NCBI GenBank assembly: GCA_965263035.1
Contig: OZ253580.1
Coordinates: forward strand, 3,456,001-3,520,000
Source: Acidobacteriota bacterium
Lineage (GTDB): Bacteria > Acidobacteriota > UBA6911 > RPQK01 > JAJDTT01
Reading direction: 5' to 3'
DNA: 64,000 nt
The notes below the pieces were generated by a model, which was not told the origin of the DNA, did not search any database, and was given only the letters and a program-made list of their open reading frames with translations. The translations under genes and the position numbers were made by a program. Of the stretch, positions 3 through 34,640 are shown piece after piece. Position 1 is the stretch's first letter, and every line of letters begins with the position of its first letter.

Positions 3-2336
3 CGGCCGCAAGCGGAGATCCAGAGCTATCGACGCCATGCCAAGGGCAACTCCTTGTTCGCGAATCGAGGTGACGGAACGTTTGAGGAAGTTGGCGCACA
101 AGCGGATGTCGAGTTGGGCCGGTGGGCCTGGAGCAGCGATTTCTTCGACTTCGACAATGACGGCCATGAAGACCTGTACGTCGTGAACGGCTTCATCACC
201 AACGAAGACACGAAGGATCTCTGAAGCTTCCTCTGGCGGCAGGTCGTGTCGCAATCGCCATCGGAAGCCGCAGTTGCTTCCGCCCCGCCTGGAGCGCGCA
301 TCGGCTCCGATTACCGGAACGGATGGGATGCGGTGAACCTGCTGATCCGGCAAGGTGGATCTCTGAGTTCACGCGAGACCAACAATTTCTATATCAACTG
401 CGGCGACGGAACTTTTGCCGACGCCTCGGGCATCACGGGACTGGACTTCCCCGAAGACGGGCGAGCCTTCGCCGTCGGCGATCTCGACCAGGACGGCGAC
501 CTGGATCTCATTCTGAAGAATCGAAATTCGCCGCAGCTCAGGCTGTTGCGGAATCAGGCCGGGAGTGGCTACAACGCGGCCAGTTTCGATCTCAGGGGCA
601 CGCGCAGCAACCGGGACGCGGTGGGAGCGAAAATCACCATCGAGACCGATGCGGGTTCCAGGTCGAAATTCGTCAAGATCGGATCGGGTTTCCTGTCGCA
701 GAGCTCCCGCCGGGTCTGGTTCGGCCTCGGGAACCAACCGGGGATCCGGCGGGTCAAGATCGAATGGCCCAGCGGGGAAGTCCAGACCTTTCGGGATCTT
801 CCGGTAAACCACCGGATTGTGATCGTCGAAGGGGTGGACAGGACGGAAACCATTCCTTTTCGGTCTCCCCAACAGGACGACGACAGGCCGGACGACGCGA
901 GGGAAGCGCCGGTTGGTGATCCTCCCCCGTACAGCGGAACCTGGCTGCTGGAAAAACTTGCCGCCCCCAAGTTCCGGTTGCCGAGCGTGAATGGAAGGCA
1001 TCATGACCTGGCCAGGTACAAGGGCCGCCGGTTGTTGTTGAACTTCTGGGCGACCTGGTGCCCGCCGTGCCGGGAAGAGCTGCGCGACCTGCGATCCCAT
1101 CGGGAGGATCTGGAAGACCTCGGCGCCACGATTCTGGCGATCTCCGTCGATGATCCTTCAGACCACGCGAAGGTACGAGAGTATGCCCGGCAGGAAGAGC
1201 TTCCGTTCCCGATCCTGCTTGCCGACGACGGCGTCATCGCTGCGTATAACCTGGTCAATCGCTTCCTTTTTGAAAAGATACGCGACTTGGCCGTACCCAC
1301 TTCGATGCTTCTGGATCGGGACGGGAACATCATCAAGATCTACCGGGGCAGAGTTCCCGCTCGGCAGATCATTCGGGACCTTCAGGACACCCCTCGATCT
1401 GAAGAAGAGCTGGTCCGGGCGGCCTTTCCGTTTCCCGGTCAAACCTTCGGCATGGAATTCGTGCGAGACTACACTTTGATTGCGGATGCGTTCCGAAGGG
1501 CCGGACTCGACGACCAGGCGGCGGTTTACTACCAGCACCAGCTCCTGGACCAGGGCCACGACACGCCCCAATCGTGGAACAGCCTTGGGCTCCTCTATGA
1601 ACGTGATGGTAGGTTGGACCAGGCTCGTGAGGCCTACGAAAAGGCCCTCCGTCTGAATCCCGACTACGCGGACAGCCACAACAATCTCGGCGCAATTCAC
1701 TTGAGAACGGGGGAGATCGACAAGGCCATAGACAGCTACCGAACCGCCGGCCGACTGGCTCCCTGGTCAGCCGATGTCCAGAACAACCTCGGACATGTGC
1801 TGCTGGAAAAAGGTCTGCGCGCTGAGGCCGTACGTGCGTACCAGCGGGCCCATGAAATCGACGGTCAGGCTCCTCAGCCCCTGGTCAACCTCGGCAACGC
1901 CTATCTTCAGATGAAGCGCTTTCAAGAAGCGATCTCGGCATACGGCAAGGTCTTGCAGATGCGGCCGGATTCCGCGGACGTCCACCACAACTTGGGTTTC
2001 GCATTTTTGGAGTCAGGGCGGCTCGACGACGCTTTGACGTCGTTCGACAGTGCGCTTCGGCTTCGGCCTCAATACGCAAGTGCCTATAACAACAAGGGGA
2101 CGGTCTTCTTGCGAAAGGGCAGGTTTGAAGAGGCGGGACGTGCGTTCAAGGGGGCGATCCAGGTCGACTCCGATTTCAGGCCCGCCTACATCAACCTTTC
2201 CATGACGCACCTTCGAGCAAACGAAATTGAAAAAGCCGTGGACGTGCTCCGCCGGCTGCTCAAGGTGAATCCGGACGATCCGATGGCGCTGGACCTGTTG
2301 GCACAGATCGAGCAAGTGAAGTCGTCGGCGCCGTAG
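3..2336 (+). CDS. FG-GAP/ASPIC-UnbV (CRTAC1-like) + TlpA-like redoxin (CPPC) + TPR fusion protein; 5' partial; in-frame TGA at 222-224 (candidate selenocysteine)
   Basis: Frame 3 from base 3 reads [75 protein letters not shown] and continues in the same frame into the 246..2336 ORF. That ORF has GDLDQDGDLDL, NRDAVGAKI..GSGFLSQSS..FGLG..IEWPSG (UnbV), LLNFWATWCPPC (redoxin) and multiple TPRs. Confidence 0.85.
225..268 (+). promoter_or_regulatory. Candidate bacterial SECIS element
   Basis: Directly after the in-frame TGA. Upper stem GCGGCA(236-241)/TGTCGC(247-252) with apical loop GGTCG starting 17 nt after the TGA; lower stem GCTTCC(226-231)/GGAAGC(263-268). Confidence 0.6.
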
Positions 2337-6743: not shown

Positions 6744-8345
6744 ATGAAGCAGGCGACATCGGCAATTCGTTTCCTGGCCTTCACACTGTCCTTCCTGGCT
6801 TTCCTGTCGCACTCGGTCGCCCAGTCTCAGGAAGAGCAGATCGATCCCTATGCACAGTGGCTGAAGGAGGACGTCTTCTACATCATCACCGACGATGAGA
6901 AGAACGTCTTCCAAAAGCTGACGACGGCCGTCGAGAAAGAGAACTTCATCGAGCAATTCTGGCGGCGAAGAGATTCGGACCGCTCTACGAACGAGAACGA
7001 GTTCAAGGAAGAGCACTATCGGCGCATCGCGTACGCCAACGAGAAGTTCCGGTACGCCGGAATTTCCGGGTGGGTGACGGATCGGGGCCGCGTCTACATC
7101 ATTTTCGGTGAGCCCCAGAGCCGCGAGCGATACTCGTCGGGATCCATGTATTTCCGGCCCCTGACCGAGGGTGGCGGGAGGACTCGAACCTATCCCTACG
7201 AGAGGTGGCATTACAACCACCTGCCGGGAATCGGTCAGGGAATCGATCTGGAATTCGTGGATCGGTCCCAGACCGGCGACTACAAGTTGGCCCTGCGTCC
7301 CGAAGAAAAGGACGCCCTGCTGATGGTGCCGGCAGGCGGTTGGACGTTCTACGAAATGATCGGTGCGGAGACCCGGCCCGGGCGGCTCATCACCAGGGAT
7401 CTGATGCGAACTTCAGGGTTCGACGGGGAAGGACATCACCGCACGTCATCGAATCCCTTTCGGATGCTGGAAACCTATTTTCAGGTCCAGAGGCCTCCCA
7501 CGATCAAGTTCGAGGATCTCCGGTCCGCGGTCCTGACTCGGATCACGTACGATGAGCTTGCCGTGCAGGTGATCGATTCCTACCAGGTGTTGAACGAGAA
7601 GACCTTCCTGGTGCCGGTGACCGTCGTCGTTCCAGGGGCGCAGTTGGCCTACGAGGACCTGGCTGACGGGACGCGCCGCGCCACGGTTGAGCTGTACGGG
7701 TCCATCACCGCATTGGGTGGCCGGATGGTCCACGAGTTCGAGGAATCGATCTACCGGGACCTGACGAGTGAACGGGACCGCGTTGCTCGTGACGTCTATT
7801 TCCAGAAGAAGCTTCCCCTCCCTCCCGGGCTCTACAAACTCAACGTCATCGTCCGCGATCACGAGAGTGGCCGGATGGGAGCGATCCAACGGCGGTTGGG
7901 CCTTCCCATGAAGGTGGCCAGTGAGTTGAATCTCTCTTCTCTGACCTTGGCCGATTACATCGTCCCGGCAAAGGGGGAAACGCTCTCTGCGCCTTTCGTC
8001 ACGCCGCTCGGCTGGAAGGTCTACCCGTCTATGAACGGAGAGTTTCAGCCCGGAGATCCGCTGGGAACCTATTTCGAGATCTACGGTTACGCCGTCGACG
8101 GCAGCACCCAGGCTCCGGATCTGGGTATTCGCACAAGGATCTGGGACCGGAAAGGCAAGGCGATTCTCGACTCTCCGGGACAGAATCAGGTCGTTCCCTT
8201 CTCCGACCGGGTTCTGGTCGCTCAGGTCTTCGACCTCAAGTCGCTGGAACCGGGCGATTATCGGTTGGAGATCAAGGTCGAGGATCGGATCGGCGGCGCG
8301 GCCGCGGCCGGGGAGGCCCTCTTCCAGGTCAAGGCTCCGCAATAG
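6744..8345 (+). CDS. GWxTD domain-containing protein
   Basis: Signal peptide; WLKEDVFYIIT..FIEQFWRRRD..EEHYRRIAYAN..GWVTDRGRVYIIFGEP. Confidence 0.92.
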   Translation: MKQATSAIRFLAFTLSFLAFLSHSVAQSQEEQIDPYAQWLKEDVFYIITDDEKNVFQKLTTAVEKENFIEQFWRRRDSDRSTNENEFKEEHYRRIAYANEKFRYAGISGWVTDRGRVYIIFGEPQSRERYSSGSMYFRPLTEGGGRTRTYPYERWHYNHLPGIGQGIDLEFVDRSQTGDYKLALRPEEKDALLMVPAGGWTFYEMIGAETRPGRLITRDLMRTSGFDGEGHHRTSSNPFRMLETYFQVQRPPTIKFEDLRSAVLTRITYDELAVQVIDSYQVLNEKTFLVPVTVVVPGAQLAYEDLADGTRRATVELYGSITALGGRMVHEFEESIYRDLTSERDRVARDVYFQKKLPLPPGLYKLNVIVRDHESGRMGAIQRRLGLPMKVASELNLSSLTLADYIVPAKGETLSAPFVTPLGWKVYPSMNGEFQPGDPLGTYFEIYGYAVDGSTQAPDLGIRTRIWDRKGKAILDSPGQNQVVPFSDRVLVAQVFDLKSLEPGDYRLEIKVEDRIGGAAAAGEALFQVKAPQ

Positions 8346-18019: not shown

Positions 18020-19942
18020 GTGAATCTCCACTCTTCGGCTTGGAATTCGGGTTTTCTCACCAAAACACTTTCCTCGATCGCCCTGCTCTTGCTGAGTCCC
18101 GCCGGGAAGGCTCTCGCCCAGGATGAGAGCGCCGTGGCCGCAGGCGCTCCCCGGGCGCCGGTGCGTGACGAAATGATGCGTCCCATCACGGCGGGCGGTT
18201 TCGTCGACGGAGCACCCGTGGTCTTCTCCGACGCCACAGCCCGGAGCGGGCTGGACGGTTTCCGCCATAGCGCCGGATCGCAGGTGAAGCGGTTCCTGAT
18301 GGAGGTCCCGTCGGGTGGCGTGGCTCTTTTCGACTACGATCGGGACGGTTGGATAGACATCTACTTGGTCAACGGTTCCAACTTCGAGGCTCTCCGAGGC
18401 CAGCAGGAACATCCGAGGGCGGCCCTCTATCGCAACAACGGGGACGGCACCTTCACCGACACCACGGCGGTGGCGGGAGTGGCCAACCAGGGTTGGGGAT
18501 TCGGCGTCGCCGTCGGAGACTACGACAACGACGGCTGGCCCGATCTCCATGTCACCAACTTCGGCAAGGATCGGCTCTATCGCAACAACGGCGACGGGAG
18601 CTTCAGCGACATCACGGACCGGGCCGGGATCTCGATTCCGGGATGGTCGACGGCGGCGTCCTTCGGAGACTTCGATCGGGACGGAGACCTGGACCTCTTC
18701 GTCTGCGGATACCTGGAATTTCCGCCATGCTCTGAATCGACTTCCAACCCGCCGGAGGAATGTCTACGGGACCGGAAAGCGGAAATGGGGACGGCTCCGG
18801 AGATTCGGCTCTCGGAGGAGGCATTGGCCCGGTCCTTCGCCATGATTCCCAAACACGCCTGCAGCTTCCGCGGGAAACAGGTCCTTTGCGGTCCCCTGGG
18901 CCTCATCGGAATCCGCGACTTCCTCTTCCGCAACAACGGGGACGGTACTTTCACCGACGTCGCGGCCGACGCGGGCGTCGACGATCCGAACCGGTACTAC
19001 GGGTTCGCCAGCACCTTCGTGGACGTGGACGGAGACCGTTGGGTGGACCTGGTGGTGGCCAACGACTCCAAGCCCAACTACCTCTACCGGAACCGGGGGG
19101 ACGGGACCTTCGAGGACATGAGCTATCCGTCCGGTTTCGCGTTCAACCAATTTGCGAAGGCCCAAGCCGGAATGGGATTGGCAGTGGGTGACTACGACAA
19201 CGACGGGCAGGTCGACTTCTACGTGACCAATTTCTCCGACGATCACAACACCCTGTACAAGAACGAGGGAGACAATTTTTTCCTGGACGTGACTTTTCAA
19301 GTCGGATTGGGGGAAGCCACCATCCCCTTTCTGGGGTGGGGGACCGGTTTCCTGGACTTTGACAACGACGGCTGGAAGGACCTGTTCGTGGCCAACGGAC
19401 ACATTTATGCGGCCGTGGACTCCTACGATTGGGGGACGACCTATTCTCAGCGGCCGCTGCTTTTCCGGAACATCGGGGGAGAACGCTTCCAGGCCGTCCC
19501 GCCCGCCACGGGGAGCGGTCTGGCCGCCGTCGTGTCCGCCCGCGGAGCCGCCTTCGGGGACCTGGACAACGACGGGCGCGTCGACGTGGTGCTCAACTGC
19601 GCCGACGGTCCGCCAGTGGTCCTGAAAAACGAGGCCTCGACGCCGGAGCATCACTGGTTGTCCCTGCGGCTGGTGGGTGGGGAGAAGAGTCCCCGCGACG
19701 CCATCGGGGCCACCGTCTTCGTGACCGCCGCCGGCCGGCGGCAGCGGGGAGACGTCATCAGCGGAGCCAGCTATTCCTCTCACTCCGACTTCCGGCTGCA
19801 CTTCGGCCTGGGTCGAGCCGAAAGGGTCGAGTCGGTGGAAATCCACTGGCCCAGTGGCCGAAGACAGACCCTGTCCGATCTGCCCGTGGACCAGATACTC
19901 ACGATCCGGGAGGGACAGGAACCGGCCGGTCCGGACAGTTGA
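18020..19942 (+). CDS. CRTAC1 family protein (FG-GAP repeats + ASPIC/UnbV)
   Basis: Signal peptide, multiple DYDNDG/NNGDGTF repeats, [24 protein letters not shown]; start uncertain (17972 possible). Confidence 0.92.
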
Positions 19943-19965: not shown

Positions 19966-21675
19966 GTGATCCAGGAATGGGTCAGAGCGAAGTTGGCCGG
20001 AGGGGTGGTCCGAGCTCGCTTTGGCGGGTTCCGGTTGAGGTGGGTTGCCGCGACGCTGCTCTGGCTCACTCCCGCCGGCGCAGCGGAAGAACCGGCCGGT
20101 CCCGGGATCGTCTTCGAGGAAGTCCTACCTCAGGCCAGCGGCATCCGTTGGGTTCATGAGAATGCCATGTCGGCCCAGCGGCACCTGCCGGAGACGGTGG
20201 GGCCCGGCTGCGCCTTCTTCGACTACGATAACGACGGATGGATGGATCTGTATCTGGTCAACAGCGGAACCTCCGACTTCTACGCTCCCGCGACGCCGCT
20301 CAGGAACGCCCTTTACCGCAACGACCGGGATGGGACCTTCACCAACGTCACCGAAGCAGCGGGTGTCTCAGGGGGGCGATTCGGCATGGGTGTCGCGGTT
20401 GCCGACTACGATGGCGACGGCTGGCAAGATCTCTACGTCACCAACTACGGACCCAACGACCTCTATCGCAACAACGGCGACGGAAGCTTCTCGGAAGTGG
20501 CAAAGGATGCGGGGCTCCTGGCTCCCGGATGGTCCACCAGCGGCGTCTGGTTCGACTACGATGGAGACGGAAGGCTGGACCTGTTCGTCTGCAGCTTCGT
20601 CCGTTACGACACATCCCTCATCCGGCTGTGCTTCGATCACCTGCGAAAGCGAACCTACTACTGCCTGCCGACCCTCTTCGATCCCACCCCCAGTCATCTC
20701 TTTCGCAACGACGGCAACGGCCGCTTCACCGACGTCAGCCGGGAGTCGGGGATCTCCGGGCACCCAGGCAAGGCGTTCGGGGTGGTGGCCACCGACGTCA
20801 ACAACGACGGGCATCTGGACCTGTTCGTCGCCAACGACACGGTGGCCGACTTCCTCTTCGTGAATCAGGGAGACGGGAAGTTCCGGGAGATGGGCCTCTG
20901 GGCCGGCGTCGCATTCGACGACGGCGGCAAGCCGCGCTCCGGGATGGGTGTGGACGCCACCGACTACGACGGCGACGGCTTGCAGGACCTCTTCGTCTCC
21001 AACATCGACCACGAAGTGTTCAGTCTCTACCGGAATCAGGGAGACCTGTCCTTCACCGACGAAGCGGCCGACGTGGGGAAACTGACCTGGCTGCTGAGTG
21101 GCTGGGGATTACGCTTCTTCGATGCGGACAACGACGGCGACGAGGACCTGTTCCTGGCGAATGGACACCCGGACGACATGGTGGAGAAATTCCGGCCGGG
21201 GCTGGGGTACAGGCAACCCCTCCTCTATTTTGAAAACGTCAACGGCCGCTTTCACGACCGCAGCCCCCAATCGGGCGCCGTCTTCTCTCGCACTTTCTCC
21301 GCCCGGGGACTGGCCACCGGGGACCTGGACAACGACGGCGATCTGGACCTGCTCATCACCGACAACGGGGGACCTCCGGTGCTGCTCCTGAACCGGGGAG
21401 GCAACCGCAACCATTGGCTTGGCCTTGATCTGGTGTCTCGCCACGGCCACGCTCCTGTCGGCGCCGTCATCACCTGGTCGGCGGGAGGGGTCGAGCACCG
21501 CCGCTTGAAGCGGGCAGGCGGCAGCTACCTCTCCTCCAGCGATCCGCGAGAGATTCTGGGTCTGGGCTCAGCTGAAGCTCTCGACTGGGTGGAGATCCGA
21601 TGGCCCAGCGGCGCCAAGACCCGCCTGACCGACCTACAGCCGAACCGCTACCACAAGCTCGTCGAGTCGCCATAG
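19966..21675 (+). CDS. CRTAC1 family protein (FG-GAP repeats + ASPIC/UnbV)
   Basis: GTG at 19966 after GGAGAGG; [35 protein letters not shown]. Confidence 0.9.
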
Positions 21676-31187: not shown

Positions 31188-32922
31188 GAAGCTGCCGTCC
31201 GCGTTCGCAATCAATTGCTTGCTCTCCATCGCTGTCCTGGGAGTCTGCTCCCTCTCCCGGGTTCTTTTCGCTACCGGCGACCCGCCTGTCTTTCGAGAAG
31301 CCGCTCAAGAAACGGGTCTGGACTTTCACCACTTCATCGGAGCGACGGGCGAGTATTTCTTTCCTGAGATCATGGGCTCGGGGGTGGGCGTGTTCGACTA
31401 TGACGGCGACGGCGATCTGGACCTCTATTTCGTCCAGGGAGCGATGCTGGACCCGTCCAAGGAAGTGTCCCAATCGGTGTTTCCCTTTTCCGGAGAGGGA
31501 CCGCCCCGGAACCGGCTGTTCCGCAATGAGCTGAATCCGAAGGGAGAACTCAGGTTCACCGACGTCACTCGTGAGGCCGGTGTAGGACACCGGGGGTACG
31601 GCATGGGCATGGCCGTCGGAGATTACGACAACGACGGCCATCTGGATTTCTACCTGACGAACTTCGGTCCCAATGTTCTGTATCGCAACAATGGAGACGG
31701 GACCTTCACCGACGTGACCGATGATGCCGGCGTCGACGATCCCCGTTACAGCGCCAGCTGCACCTTCCTCGACTACGATTCCGACGGCGACCTGGACCTC
31801 TACGTCGCCAACTACGTCTCCTTCACCATCAAGGGAAACCGCAGGTGCGGCGGGGAGCGCCGCGACTACTGCGCGCCCGATGTCTACCAGCCGTTGCCTG
31901 ACCGCCTCTTTCGCAACGAAGGAAACGGAAGATTCACCGACTGGTCGGAGGAGGCCGGTCTGGGCCGGGCCTTCGGCGCCGGTCTTGGAGTCGTGGCCGT
32001 GGATCTGGATCTCGACCGCCGCGTGGACGTCTACGTTGCCAACGACGGGACCCCCAACCAGTTGTGGATCAACCAGGGGGATGGGACGTTCCAGGATCAG
32101 GGCCTGGTGTCCGGGACCGCCTACAACATCGACGGAGTGGCCGAGGCGGGCATGGGCGTCACGGCAGCCGATTTCGACGGCGATGGGGACGAAGACCTGT
32201 TCGTGACTCACAACAAGAAGGAGACCCACACGCTCTATCTGAATGGACGGCAAAAGGGATTTGCGGACGCCACCTCCCGCTTCGGGCTGGCCAACGCGAG
32301 CGTTCCCTATTCCGGTTTCGGCACCCTCTGGTTCGATTACGACAACGACGGTTGGTTGGACCTCTTCGTGGCCAACGGAGCCGTGGTCATGGACGACCGG
32401 CAGCCGGCCGATTTACCCTATCCCTACGCGCAGGAGAACCAGCTCTTTCGGGGCGACGAAACCGGCCGGTCTCAGGAGATCGGATCCGACCTTGCGGGCC
32501 CGGCTGTGGATCTTGTGGAGGTCAGCCGGGGAGCCGCTTTCGGGGATATCGACAACGACGGGGACGTGGACATCGCCATCGCCAACAACAACGGACCGGC
32601 TCGTCTTCTGCTCAACCAGGTCGGCTCCCGGAACCATTGGCTGGGTGTTCGGCTGGAGGGTGAGAGGAGCACCCCGGCAGCCGTCTATCAAGCTAGAGTC
32701 GCGTTGCTCCGAGATGGCCGTAAGCCCCTATGGCGCCGCTGCCACACCGACGGCAGCTATCTCAGCGCCAACGACAGCCGGATCATCTTCGGGCTGGGCT
32801 CATCGAAGATTGTGGGCCGAGTGGAAGTTCACTGGCCCGACAGCGGGTGCGAAGCGTGGGACGGCATGGAGGTCGATCGATATGTCACCCTCCGGAGGGG
32901 GACCGGCCGACCTTGCGAATAA
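31177..32922 (+). CDS. CRTAC1 family protein (FG-GAP repeats + ASPIC/UnbV)
   Basis: PEIMGSGVGVFDYDGDGDLD, GDYDNDG, SRGAAFGDIDNDG, GSYLSANDSRIIFGLG. Confidence 0.92.
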   Translation: MGIRKLPSAFAINCLLSIAVLGVCSLSRVLFATGDPPVFREAAQETGLDFHHFIGATGEYFFPEIMGSGVGVFDYDGDGDLDLYFVQGAMLDPSKEVSQSVFPFSGEGPPRNRLFRNELNPKGELRFTDVTREAGVGHRGYGMGMAVGDYDNDGHLDFYLTNFGPNVLYRNNGDGTFTDVTDDAGVDDPRYSASCTFLDYDSDGDLDLYVANYVSFTIKGNRRCGGERRDYCAPDVYQPLPDRLFRNEGNGRFTDWSEEAGLGRAFGAGLGVVAVDLDLDRRVDVYVANDGTPNQLWINQGDGTFQDQGLVSGTAYNIDGVAEAGMGVTAADFDGDGDEDLFVTHNKKETHTLYLNGRQKGFADATSRFGLANASVPYSGFGTLWFDYDNDGWLDLFVANGAVVMDDRQPADLPYPYAQENQLFRGDETGRSQEIGSDLAGPAVDLVEVSRGAAFGDIDNDGDVDIAIANNNGPARLLLNQVGSRNHWLGVRLEGERSTPAAVYQARVALLRDGRKPLWRRCHTDGSYLSANDSRIIFGLGSSKIVGRVEVHWPDSGCEAWDGMEVDRYVTLRRGTGRPCE

Positions 32923-32927
32923 CGACG

Positions 32928-34640
32928 TTATTCTTCCGTGAGGGTCACGTAGGTGTCGAGGGGTAGGTTCTCGAATCTCTGGACCCGGTTGCTGGGACTG
33001 GGCCATTGAATCTCGATCCAATCCAGCTTGTCTGCCTTGCCTAGTCCCAAAACCTCCCGAGGATCGTGGGACGCCAAATAGCTTCCCCCGCTGGTCTTCA
33101 AACGGCTCCGGACCACTCCTCCGGCGGACCACCGGATCAGTGCGCCGATGGAGTCCCGGTTACAGGTCTTGCCCACCAGTTTCAGACCGATCCAGTGATT
33201 TCCGGTCCCCCATCGGTTCCGCAATAGAATGGGCGCCTGTCCGTTGTTGGCCACCAGAACGTCGACTCTCCCGTCATTGTCGATGTCGCCTACCGTCAAC
33301 CCGCGAGCCGGATATTTCTCCGCAAAGACGGCTCCTGCCCGCTCGCTGATGTCCCGGAGCCTGCCGTCCACGTTTTCGAAGAGCAGCAGAGGCATGGCGT
33401 AGGTGACCTGGAGGGAATAGGAGGCGATCATGTCGTCGGGATGCCCGTTGGCCAGAAACAGGTCCATGTCCCCGTCCACGTCGAAGTCCAGAAACTTCAG
33501 TCCCCAGCCGCTCAGGAGCCGGGTGGACTGAGCCACTTGATTGGGATGGGAGAGATCGCGAAACAATTCATTCCGCTGATTCTGGTAAAGGGCGAACATC
33601 TCCTGGTCCACGTTGGCCACGAACAGATCCTGCCATCCGTCCTGATTGAAGTCGGCGGAATCGACCCCCATGCCGGAGCGGGCTTTCCCGTTGGCGCTGA
33701 ACCCCACCTCCGCGAGAAAACCGATCTCGTCCCACCGGTCGTTTCCCCGGTTGACGAACAGGAAGTTCTGCACCGTGTCGTTGGCGACGAAGAGGTCCAT
33801 CCTGCGGTCGTTGTCGATGTCAGTGGCGACGACGCCCAGCGCCTTGCCCAGTGACCGGCCGATGTCGCTCTTGCCCCCGACTTCGGCAAAGGTGCCGTCG
33901 CGGTTGTTTTGGAAGAGCAGGCTCGGCGTCGGTTCGAAGAAGGTGGGGATGCAGTAGTAGTTCTTGCCCAGTTGGTTGTTCCCGCACCGCACCGGGTTGT
34001 CGATCTGGTATTTGACGAAGCTGCAGACGAACAGGTCGAGCCATCCGTCGCCGTCATAGTCGAACCAGACGGCGCTGGTGGTCCACCCGGGAGCGGCCAG
34101 ACCCGAAACTCGGGTGACGTCCCGGAAGGTCCCGTCCCCCTGGTTCTCGTAGAGAATGGCGCGGCCGTAGGCGGTGACATAGAGATCGGTGTCTCCGTCG
34201 TTGTCGTAGTCGGCGGCCGCGGCCCCCATGCCGAAACTTCCCGCGGCGACGCCCGCCTTGCGGGTGACGTCGCTGAAGGTTCCGTCGCCGTTGTTCCGGT
34301 AGAGGGCATTGCTGAGCCTCTTCTCCGGTGTGAAGAAATCCGACGGTCCGTAATTGACCAGGTACAGGTCCAACCACCCGTCATTGTCGTAGTCGAAAAA
34401 GGCGCAGCCGGGTCCCAGGGTTTCCGGCAGATGCCGCATCTCCGACATGGCGTTCTCGTGCACCCAGGCGATGCCGCTGCTGGAGGGCGGGATTTTCGTG
34501 AAGAGGCCCGGTCGGGACGGATCGGTCTCGTTCCCCGCCAATCCAGGGGTCAGGAACGCCGCCAGTAAAAGGAGTGGCAATCGGGGACGGAGGGCAAGGA
34601 GGAAACCGAGGTCGCCGGTCTCGGCCTCGAAATCGGTCAT
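32928..34640 (-). CDS. CRTAC1 family protein (FG-GAP repeats + ASPIC/UnbV)
   Basis: Start MTDFEAET overlaps the upstream stop (ATGA); [35 protein letters not shown]; close paralogue of 19966..21675. Confidence 0.9.

Follow-up and report, generated by a model that had tools for sequence, protein, structure and literature searches.

A probable selenocysteine codon in a family of CRTAC1-like FG-GAP/UnbV propeller proteins fused to a ResA-like thioredoxin domain

Introduction

A cysteine (Cys) homologue is the usual criterion for a catalytic selenocysteine (Sec), being a criterion of search that lies outside the mechanism, while the start of a helix that follows a β-strand is the usual place for a redox-active Cys or Sec. 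According to the accessible part of PMC13188914, nearly all selenoprotein families have Cys homologues, and the pairing of Sec with Cys is the basis of searches that do not depend on the Sec insertion sequence (SECIS). A current predictor drops families without such homologues, which all known families now seem to have (accessible part of PMC12013277). The constraints listed for the bacterial element (bSECIS) in the accessible text of PMC13188914 are a loop of 3-9 nucleotides (nt), a stem of 4-16 base pairs (bp), a G in the first two loop positions, a distance of 16-37 nt from the UGA and a minimum free energy (MFE) of at most -7.5 kcal/mol. Here we describe a 64,000-nt stretch of a single-contig Acidobacteriota genome of 6.2 Mb (the window; G000:C1:3456001-3520000), at the 5′ end of which lies the greater part of a gene coding for a CRTAC1-like FG-GAP/UnbV propeller protein with a fused thioredoxin-fold domain. 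The gene is interrupted by an in-frame UGA at positions 222-224 which, judging from its conservation, an adjacent co-varying hairpin and the presence of the Sec machinery, is very probably read as Sec.

Reading frame and domain architecture

The frame is open from the third base of the window to the TGA and continues unshifted beyond it through the peptide SFLWRQVV to a TAG codon, while the open reading frame (ORF) listing calls a product of 696 amino acids (aa) from a GTG start within this frame (246-2336). The start of the gene is a Met codon at C1:3454254, which is located 1747 nt 5′ of window base 1, and the whole gene comprises 1360 codons, with the TGA at residue 657 being its sole in-frame stop. 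Pfam comparison matched FG-GAP_3 (62.3 bits) on both sides of the TGA, showing that it cuts through one domain, and identified UnbV_ASPIC (66.4 bits), AhpC-TSA/Redoxin and TPR domains 3′ of these repeats, with the scores of FG-GAP_3, UnbV_ASPIC, AhpC-TSA and Redoxin all above the respective family cut-offs. Re-reading of the window therefore confirmed what an initial sequence-only reading had described, namely an open frame with one TGA, an unshifted continuation into the 696-aa ORF and the splitting of one continuous domain. The same reading had noted the lack of a signal peptide, which holds true for the 696-aa fragment but not for the full protein, where a putative export signal is present at residues 50-68. 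As read from sequence only, the N-terminus comprises a basic tail and, after it, a hydrophobic helix at these residues, and a second, shorter form of the protein (group B, below) likewise has a signal-like segment. The helix probably represents a membrane anchor, with the remainder of the 1360-aa protein facing the outside of the cytoplasm.

Conservation and distribution of the in-frame TGA

Exactly one TGA was observed in 37 of the 46 listed matches of a six-frame search, derived from 25 of 41 related genomes and with identities down to 37%. In all 27 loci that were checked (including L031 of the unpublished genome G016) the TGA occupies one and the same column, as it does in a total of more than 70 loci distributed among the Acidobacteriota, Verrucomicrobiota and Planctomycetota. 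Matches occur in 111 of the 401 genomes of a phylum sample, with one-TGA rows originating from 59 genomes among the matches listed (hand count), besides which there are 22 further matches. A pattern-seeded scan of species genomes returned the best 80 named loci, 79 of which could be placed, and 42 of the latter have a TGA at this column (Acidobacteriota: 14; Verrucomicrobiota: 15; Planctomycetota: 11; unassigned: 2). Furthermore, the TGA-bearing DNA pattern is present in at least 120 metagenome stretches, and the 200 codons 5′ of the TGA are open in 104/105 cases. Contigs of four public sequencing runs, three of which are RNA libraries from two studies, cross the site with no variant at 222-224, and the base calls are thereby confirmed in independent data. 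The conservation of the TGA across many lineages, which the sequence-only reading had proposed to look for, is thus seen in three phyla, while its opposite, a TGA unique to this assembly, is contradicted by the named loci, the metagenome stretches and the independent runs alike.

One of the RNA studies is labelled as a sponge metagenome. Depth rises at window positions 201-280 and 1036-1079, corresponding to the SECIS region and the WCxPC motif, in runs X6, X15, X16 and X18. This rise is caused by short contigs from other organisms that match at these positions, one of which has another peptide encoded ahead of this TGA, so that related Sec forms seem to occur together in those samples.

Two groups can be distinguished among the Sec forms. 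Group A proteins are approximately 1360 aa in length, contain TPRs and carry the motif KDL-U-SF[LF]WRQVVS, while those of group B are approximately 950 aa in length, are devoid of TPRs and carry the motif KDT-U-SFFWRHVVA. The source genome encodes one copy of each, with the group B copy at C1:5512578-5514071 being 37.5% identical to the window gene and having its TGA in the same column. These two copies are found among 40 FG-GAP/UnbV paralogues in this genome (approximate count of tblastn high-scoring segment pairs of at least 450 aa, E-value up to 1e-20), 38 of which lack the Sec insert. Four of the paralogues are located in the window, at 18425-19915 (+), 20266-21666 (+), 31507-32910 (+) and 32934-34349 (-), and a fifth is situated a little way upstream of the window; the Sec insert and a thioredoxin domain are missing from all five. 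The metagenome contigs L190 and L211 each bear the TGA motif twice, such that two Sec-form genes can be near neighbours on one contig. The position preceding Sec is occupied by Leu or Thr in other Sec forms, while in L099 and L101, which derive from metagenome-assembled genomes of Pirellulaceae, a Cys immediately precedes Sec (GDC-U-SFFWRQV), giving a C-U dyad. Divergent loci of Planctomycetota or unassigned origin (L119, L124, L138 and L134) retain the TGA in the same column within the motifs EDL-U-SVLWRAVV and PDG-U-RCVWLAVV.

The putative SECIS hairpin

A hairpin of 17 nt (GCGGCA / GGUCG / UGUCGC; window 236-252) is located 11 nt 3′ of the UGA and agrees with all of the bSECIS constraints given above (loop: 5 nt; stem: 6 bp; UGA-to-loop distance: 17 nt; MFE: -8.7 kcal/mol). 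Its loop starts with GGU, while that of group B starts with CGU. All six pairs are formed in 29 of 32 TGA loci, as opposed to one of 18 relatives in which the xSFFWRQVV peptide is shared but the TGA is lacking, indicating that it is the pairing of the RNA that is maintained, and solely where the UGA is present. Among the 69 rows of Sec forms (54 of them distinct), pairing is seen in 96.3% of cells, compared with 87.3% in shuffled alignments, with 0/500 shuffles reaching the observed value. Both sides change in three of the six pairs in these rows, and the variants of alignment pair 21:31 include GU (18), CG (12), AU (10), GC (8) and UA (4). The covariation score of the hairpin amounts to 0.322, compared with 0.135 for shuffles (0/500 reach it) and at most 0.108 for controls with slid partners. 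In the metagenomes, where the search pattern excluded the 3′ arm of the hairpin, all six pairs are present in 108 of 123 matches and five pairs in a further 14. The constraints and the covariation together bear out the earlier suggestion of a SECIS hairpin directly after the UGA.

A longer hairpin predicted by RNAfold from base 227 was rejected, as it is not conserved, and the 17-nt hairpin was preferred. The hairpin of the divergent loci L119, L124, L138 and L134 seems to be paired one register off, and these were omitted from the covariation count.

Selenocysteine machinery

A tRNA-Sec gene at c[2849762,2849859] is the sole tRNA gene with anticodon UCA in the source genome, which also encodes SelB (349.5 bits, with the C-terminal part), SelA (541.7 bits) and SelD (297.5 bits), all with scores above the family cut-off. 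The full set of sel genes for which the sequence-only reading had advised a check is consequently present. In the phylum sample selA was identified in 300 of the 401 genomes, including 55 of the 59 with the TGA form.

The four other genomes with the TGA form (G009, G117, G333 and G279) yielded no selA match even at an E-value of 1e-5, and three of them are 95-99% complete. Each contains a tRNA-Sec gene (68-76 bits; threshold: 47), and either an alternative route to Sec-tRNA or a selA gene that falls in an assembly gap might be the explanation. The selD match of the source genome (C1:556908-557825) lies within a 756-aa open frame without an internal stop and looks like a Sec-free fusion protein. 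ARAGORN additionally reported an unidentified tRNA with a two-letter anticodon (tt) at C1:5613131-5613216.

Residues aligned with selenocysteine in related proteins

The close relatives that lack the TGA show 46-53% identity and have, for the most part, the architecture of the Sec forms. The Sec column is occupied by A, G, S, N, D, E or Y in 18 non-TGA loci and by S, N, N and D in four named ones, with Cys in none of the 18. Ninety-five full-length proteins among the best 120 database matches contain N (40), S (28), A (23), G (3) or E (1) at this position and again no Cys. A further 23 of these 120 matches are fragments of 633-696 aa that start just past the TGA, showing that public gene calls split the gene, in agreement with the remark in the sequence-only reading that homologues are annotated as split pairs. 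The selA gene is still present in 14 of 18 checked genomes with non-Sec forms, which indicates that Sec was not lost together with its machinery.

The scan of the species genomes, although seeded with a Cys-bearing peptide pattern, found no Cys among its best 80 loci. Similarly, a Cys-codon motif was found in no metagenome stretch, compared with at least 120 that contain TGA in the same pattern, which fixes Ser as AGY and the following codons as in the Sec forms, such that oddly coded Cys forms may escape it. The Cys homologues that had been anticipated were consequently encountered neither among the relatives nor in the best database matches or the metagenome scan, and the FG-GAP/UnbV Sec family would be an exception to the rule that selenoprotein families have Cys homologues.

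The fused thioredoxin-like domain and the structural model

A Redoxin/AhpC-TSA domain following UnbV_ASPIC is retained in all four further Sec forms that were scanned, namely those of group B, the Verrucomicrobiota, the Planctomycetota and the Pyrinomonadaceae. In a MAFFT alignment of 181 sequences, a CxxC motif occupies the columns of the window CPPC in 66/66 Sec forms, as opposed to 7/115 non-Sec forms, the remainder of which have only the second Cys (56), only the first (1) or neither (51). Among the 97 metagenome Sec forms whose open frame is long enough, 95 likewise have a CxxC motif at the expected distance. Twelve of 741 positions are specific to the Sec forms (at least 85% conserved in these and at most 30% shared by non-Sec forms; 64 versus 113 sequences); among them are the Sec residue, the leading Cys of CPPC (Cys629; model numbering) and the Glu three residues past the second Cys (Glu635), which we take to correspond to Glu80 of ResA. 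Within the source genome, only the two Sec-bearing members of the 40 paralogues have the thioredoxin-like domain downstream. On a FastTree tree from which the trait columns were removed, the Sec state changes three times, and rooting on group B places 112 of the 115 non-Sec forms in one clade (support: 96) that is sister to the Sec clade of the window gene.

An AlphaFold2 model of 741 aa across the UGA, comprising the propeller, UnbV and thioredoxin domains and based on 91 aligned sequences, was obtained with high confidence (predicted local distance difference test: 89.4; predicted template modelling score: 0.88). A strand at residues 345-348 is followed in this model by Sec350, a helix at 350-358, a low-confidence loop and a second helix at 378-392. 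The top Foldseek match is murine CRTAC1 (9etn_A; E-value: 3.9e-28; template modelling (TM) score: 0.70, target-normalised; identity: 20%), while the last domain matches ResA/TlpA structures, with ResA entries 2f9s and 1st9 at TM-scores of 0.88-0.89. A PDB entry with the title 'ResA E80Q' is also among the Foldseek matches. No family was found for the propeller part in NCBIfam.

Locus organization

The features of the gene within the window are summarized in Table 1. Its neighbours, all on the opposite strand, encode a cupin, a GFO/IDH/MocA oxidoreductase and an M81 peptidase, beyond which a phosphorylase-family gene and a GWxTD gene follow on the forward strand. The gene 5′ of the locus is likewise on the opposite strand, and the immediate neighbour genes give no functional lead. 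The GWxTD domain is encoded in a 533-aa ORF at window 6744-8345 (+), a few genes downstream, with no evident link to the Sec gene.

Table 1. Features of the putative selenoprotein gene in the 64,000-nt window
Feature	Position	Strand	Basis
Coding part before the UGA, residues 584-656 of 1360, FG-GAP blades	3-221	+	Pfam, frame reading
UGA, probable selenocysteine codon, residue 657	222-224	+	conservation among homologues
Spacer of 11 nt between UGA and hairpin, codons S-F-L and part of W	225-235	+	sequence
Putative SECIS hairpin, stem 236-241/247-252 (6 bp), loop GGUCG 242-246	236-252	+	folding, covariation
Coding part after the UGA, TAG 2334-2336; given by gene callers as a separate 696-aa ORF (246-2336)	225-2336	+	
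Subfamily-specific propeller insert; modelled helix SFLWRQVVS, low-confidence loop, second helix	225-400	+	
UnbV_ASPIC domain PF07593	618-818	+	Pfam, 66.4 bits
ResA/TlpA-like thioredoxin-fold domain	960-1358	+	AhpC-TSA 87.1 bits, Redoxin 73.8 bits
CPPC of the active-site motif W-C-P-P-C-R-E-E	1059-1070	+	
C-terminal TPR repeats, long form (group A) only	1467-2318	+	Pfam

Proposed function and alternative explanations

Taken as a whole, the observations are in our view likely to be best explained by a genuine Sec codon that is read by means of a SECIS hairpin and forms part of a redox unit. The proposal of the sequence-only reading, a Sec-containing CRTAC1/UnbV protein, is supported by the conserved TGA, the co-varying hairpin, the sel genes and the split gene calls. 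SelB together with Sec-tRNA(Sec) would read the UGA through the hairpin at 236-252 to give one protein of 1360 aa, which the N-terminal helix would anchor with the remainder in an extracytoplasmic location. As placed by the model, Sec657 would follow a β-strand and open a helix in an insert that is peculiar to this CRTAC1-like FG-GAP/UnbV subfamily. Sec could then serve as the reactive residue of an extracytoplasmic redox centre, with the propeller holding the substrate. The resulting selenenylsulfide between Sec and the substrate, or a selenenic acid, would be resolved by the fused ResA/TlpA-like C-x-P-C-x-x-E domain, which by analogy with ResA and TlpA may be re-reduced from the membrane. 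The position of Sec at a helix start in the insert, the fused ResA-like module, the putative export signal and the tendency of Sec and the first Cys to be lost together all suggest such a selenol/dithiol redox unit acting on a propeller-bound substrate, a reading for and against which we see the balance as even. The losses of Sec, which are never to Cys and mostly coincide with the loss of the first Cys of CxPC, would be consistent with a redox function that was abandoned as a whole.

Several observations weigh against this interpretation. Cys is found at the Sec column in 0/115 of the aligned non-Sec forms, and the variability of the aligned residue (N, S, A, G, D, E or Y) also fits a position without functional weight. 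By the sequence-only reading's own list, the missing Cys homologues count against Sec; they are outweighed by the remaining evidence. The contigs from RNA libraries prove neither transcription nor read-through. The folding energy of the hairpin is not unusual for a G+C-rich sequence (z-scores of 0.38 and 0.59, all single-sequence values being 0.38, 0.59, -0.31, -1.11 and -1.15), and a search of both loci against Rfam (E-value up to 10) returned three chance-level matches, none of them at the hairpin. The separate losses of Sec outside the main non-Sec clade concern L084 and, together, L069 and L071, and the latter two have kept the CxxC motif. However marked in the counts, the link between Sec and CxxC depends on only about three independent changes of Sec state, and an independent-pairs test comprises only two to three pairs, giving it no power to reach significance. 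As 112 of the 115 non-Sec forms make up one clade, the 12 Sec-specific positions may also be clade differences.

One objection, that the TGA is a true stop in a pseudogene, through a sequencing error or between two genes with products of 656 and 696 aa, agrees with the way in which public records and gene callers treat it (23 of the best 120 matches start just past the TGA) and with the GTG located 21 nt 3′ of the TGA. This GTG sits, however, within the 3′ arm of a hairpin that co-varies and agrees with the bSECIS constraints. The break would furthermore separate a strand from a helix within a single domain that is modelled with confidence, and the in-frame TGA is shared by more than 70 loci and by at least 120 metagenome stretches and is seen again in independent runs, so that we regard a true stop as hardly credible. 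A selenium-dependent role of a different kind, in which the UGA and SECIS act mainly as a gate on production of the full-length protein and the side chain at position 657 matters little, would account for the tolerance of N, S, A, G, D, E or Y at a column next to a conserved SFFWRQVV. A SECIS could also arise easily, given that non-Sec sequences are one to four mismatches from the full hairpin and that L064 is paired at 6/6 positions. A neutral residue should nevertheless drift to sense codons including those for Cys, and no Cys was found in the metagenome scan, whereas the UGA and hairpin are kept across forms of 30-40% identity in three phyla and in both paralogue groups, and Sec co-occurs with an intact C-x-P-C-x-x-E. 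We consider such a gate very improbable, although less so than a true stop.

A chemical alternative has somewhat more in its favour, namely that Sec, instead of being a redox nucleophile, coordinates a metal or metalloid held by the propeller, with the thioredoxin-like domain just keeping the selenol reduced in an oxidising periplasm. That Sec never alternates with Cys suggests a chemistry beyond that of sulfur, the FG-GAP DxDxDG-type positions D74, N328, D442 and D444 (model numbering) are also specific to the Sec forms, and many selenoproteins are predicted to bind metals (accessible part of PMC13188914). Against this, no second soft ligand (Cys/His) that is specific to the Sec forms is conserved near the site, and the differences at the DxDxDG positions may be clade effects, with 112/115 non-Sec forms in one clade. 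A metal-ligand role is as such unlikely, and the redox unit involving the fused dithiol domain is preferred. The latter implies a periplasmic reaction that only a selenol performs, which would take place on a CRTAC1-like propeller and be recycled by the fused ResA-like dithiol; this implication we put forward tentatively and with rather more doubt than the redox unit itself.

Novelty and significance

To our knowledge, no function is known for bacterial CRTAC1-like propellers, and a reactive residue that is coupled to a reductase module of its own would offer a first way into it. Full-text literature searches found no selenoprotein with FG-GAP, CRTAC1, VCBS or UnbV, the papers retrieved being irrelevant in the parts that were accessible. 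The terms FG-GAP, ASPIC and propeller are absent from the accessible main texts of PMC13188914, PMC13326102, PMC12013277, PMC2398784, PMC9312934 and PMC9402790, the supplementary tables of which may list the family under another name. The proteins described here thus apparently constitute a widespread and undescribed selenoprotein family, which is commonly met with in soil, marine and sponge-associated members of the Acidobacteriota, Verrucomicrobiota and Planctomycetota. If the interpretation is correct, this family was missed both by pipelines that demand Sec/Cys pairs and by gene callers that split it. A widespread family that lacks Cys homologues would expose a blind spot of discovery methods that rely on such pairs, and would provide a natural case for asking what selenium offers beyond sulfur. 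As the gene is recorded publicly as two fragments, genomes of three large environmental phyla would be mis-annotated at one or two loci each.

Comparison with known systems

The hairpin resembles the fdh-type bSECIS of Escherichia coli, as represented in the bSECISearch model (accessible part of PMC13188914), in its location immediately 3′ of the UGA, a spacing within 16-37 nt and a small loop that opens with G-G-U or N-G-U. It differs in having a short conserved stem of 6 bp, no conserved bulge and no matching Rfam family. With the known bacterial selenoproteins the window gene shares the in-frame UGA, the SECIS, the accompanying sel genes and the location of the putative Sec as the first residue of a helix that follows a strand, while it is set apart from the known families by the lack of any Cys homologue found. 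The ResA-like WAxxUGC selenoproteins of NCBIfam family NF041054 are likewise thioredoxin-fold proteins of Sec-using bacteria, and are exported, as the protein described here probably is. The score against this family is, however, 54.5 bits (cut-off: 300), and its Sec, judging by the family name, lies inside the thioredoxin motif, whereas here the motif is all-Cys and the probable Sec is situated approximately 280 residues upstream in another domain.

The thioredoxin-fold domain itself has the characteristics of ResA/TlpA/CcmG-type oxidoreductases, including the W-C-x-P-C motif and a Glu three residues past the second Cys. Comparison against the NCBIfam ResA (76.2 bits; cut-off: 170) and TlpA (55.5 bits; cut-off: 230) models indicates that it is an equivalog of neither, and while those enzymes are free-standing lipoproteins or anchored proteins, the module is here fused behind a propeller. 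The closest relationship of the remaining protein is with the CRTAC1/ASPIC-UnbV proteins, with which it shares FG-GAP repeats followed by a UnbV_ASPIC domain, the features that define membership. Unlike CRTAC1, it additionally carries the putative Sec-bearing insert after a late propeller blade, the fused thioredoxin-fold domain and TPRs.

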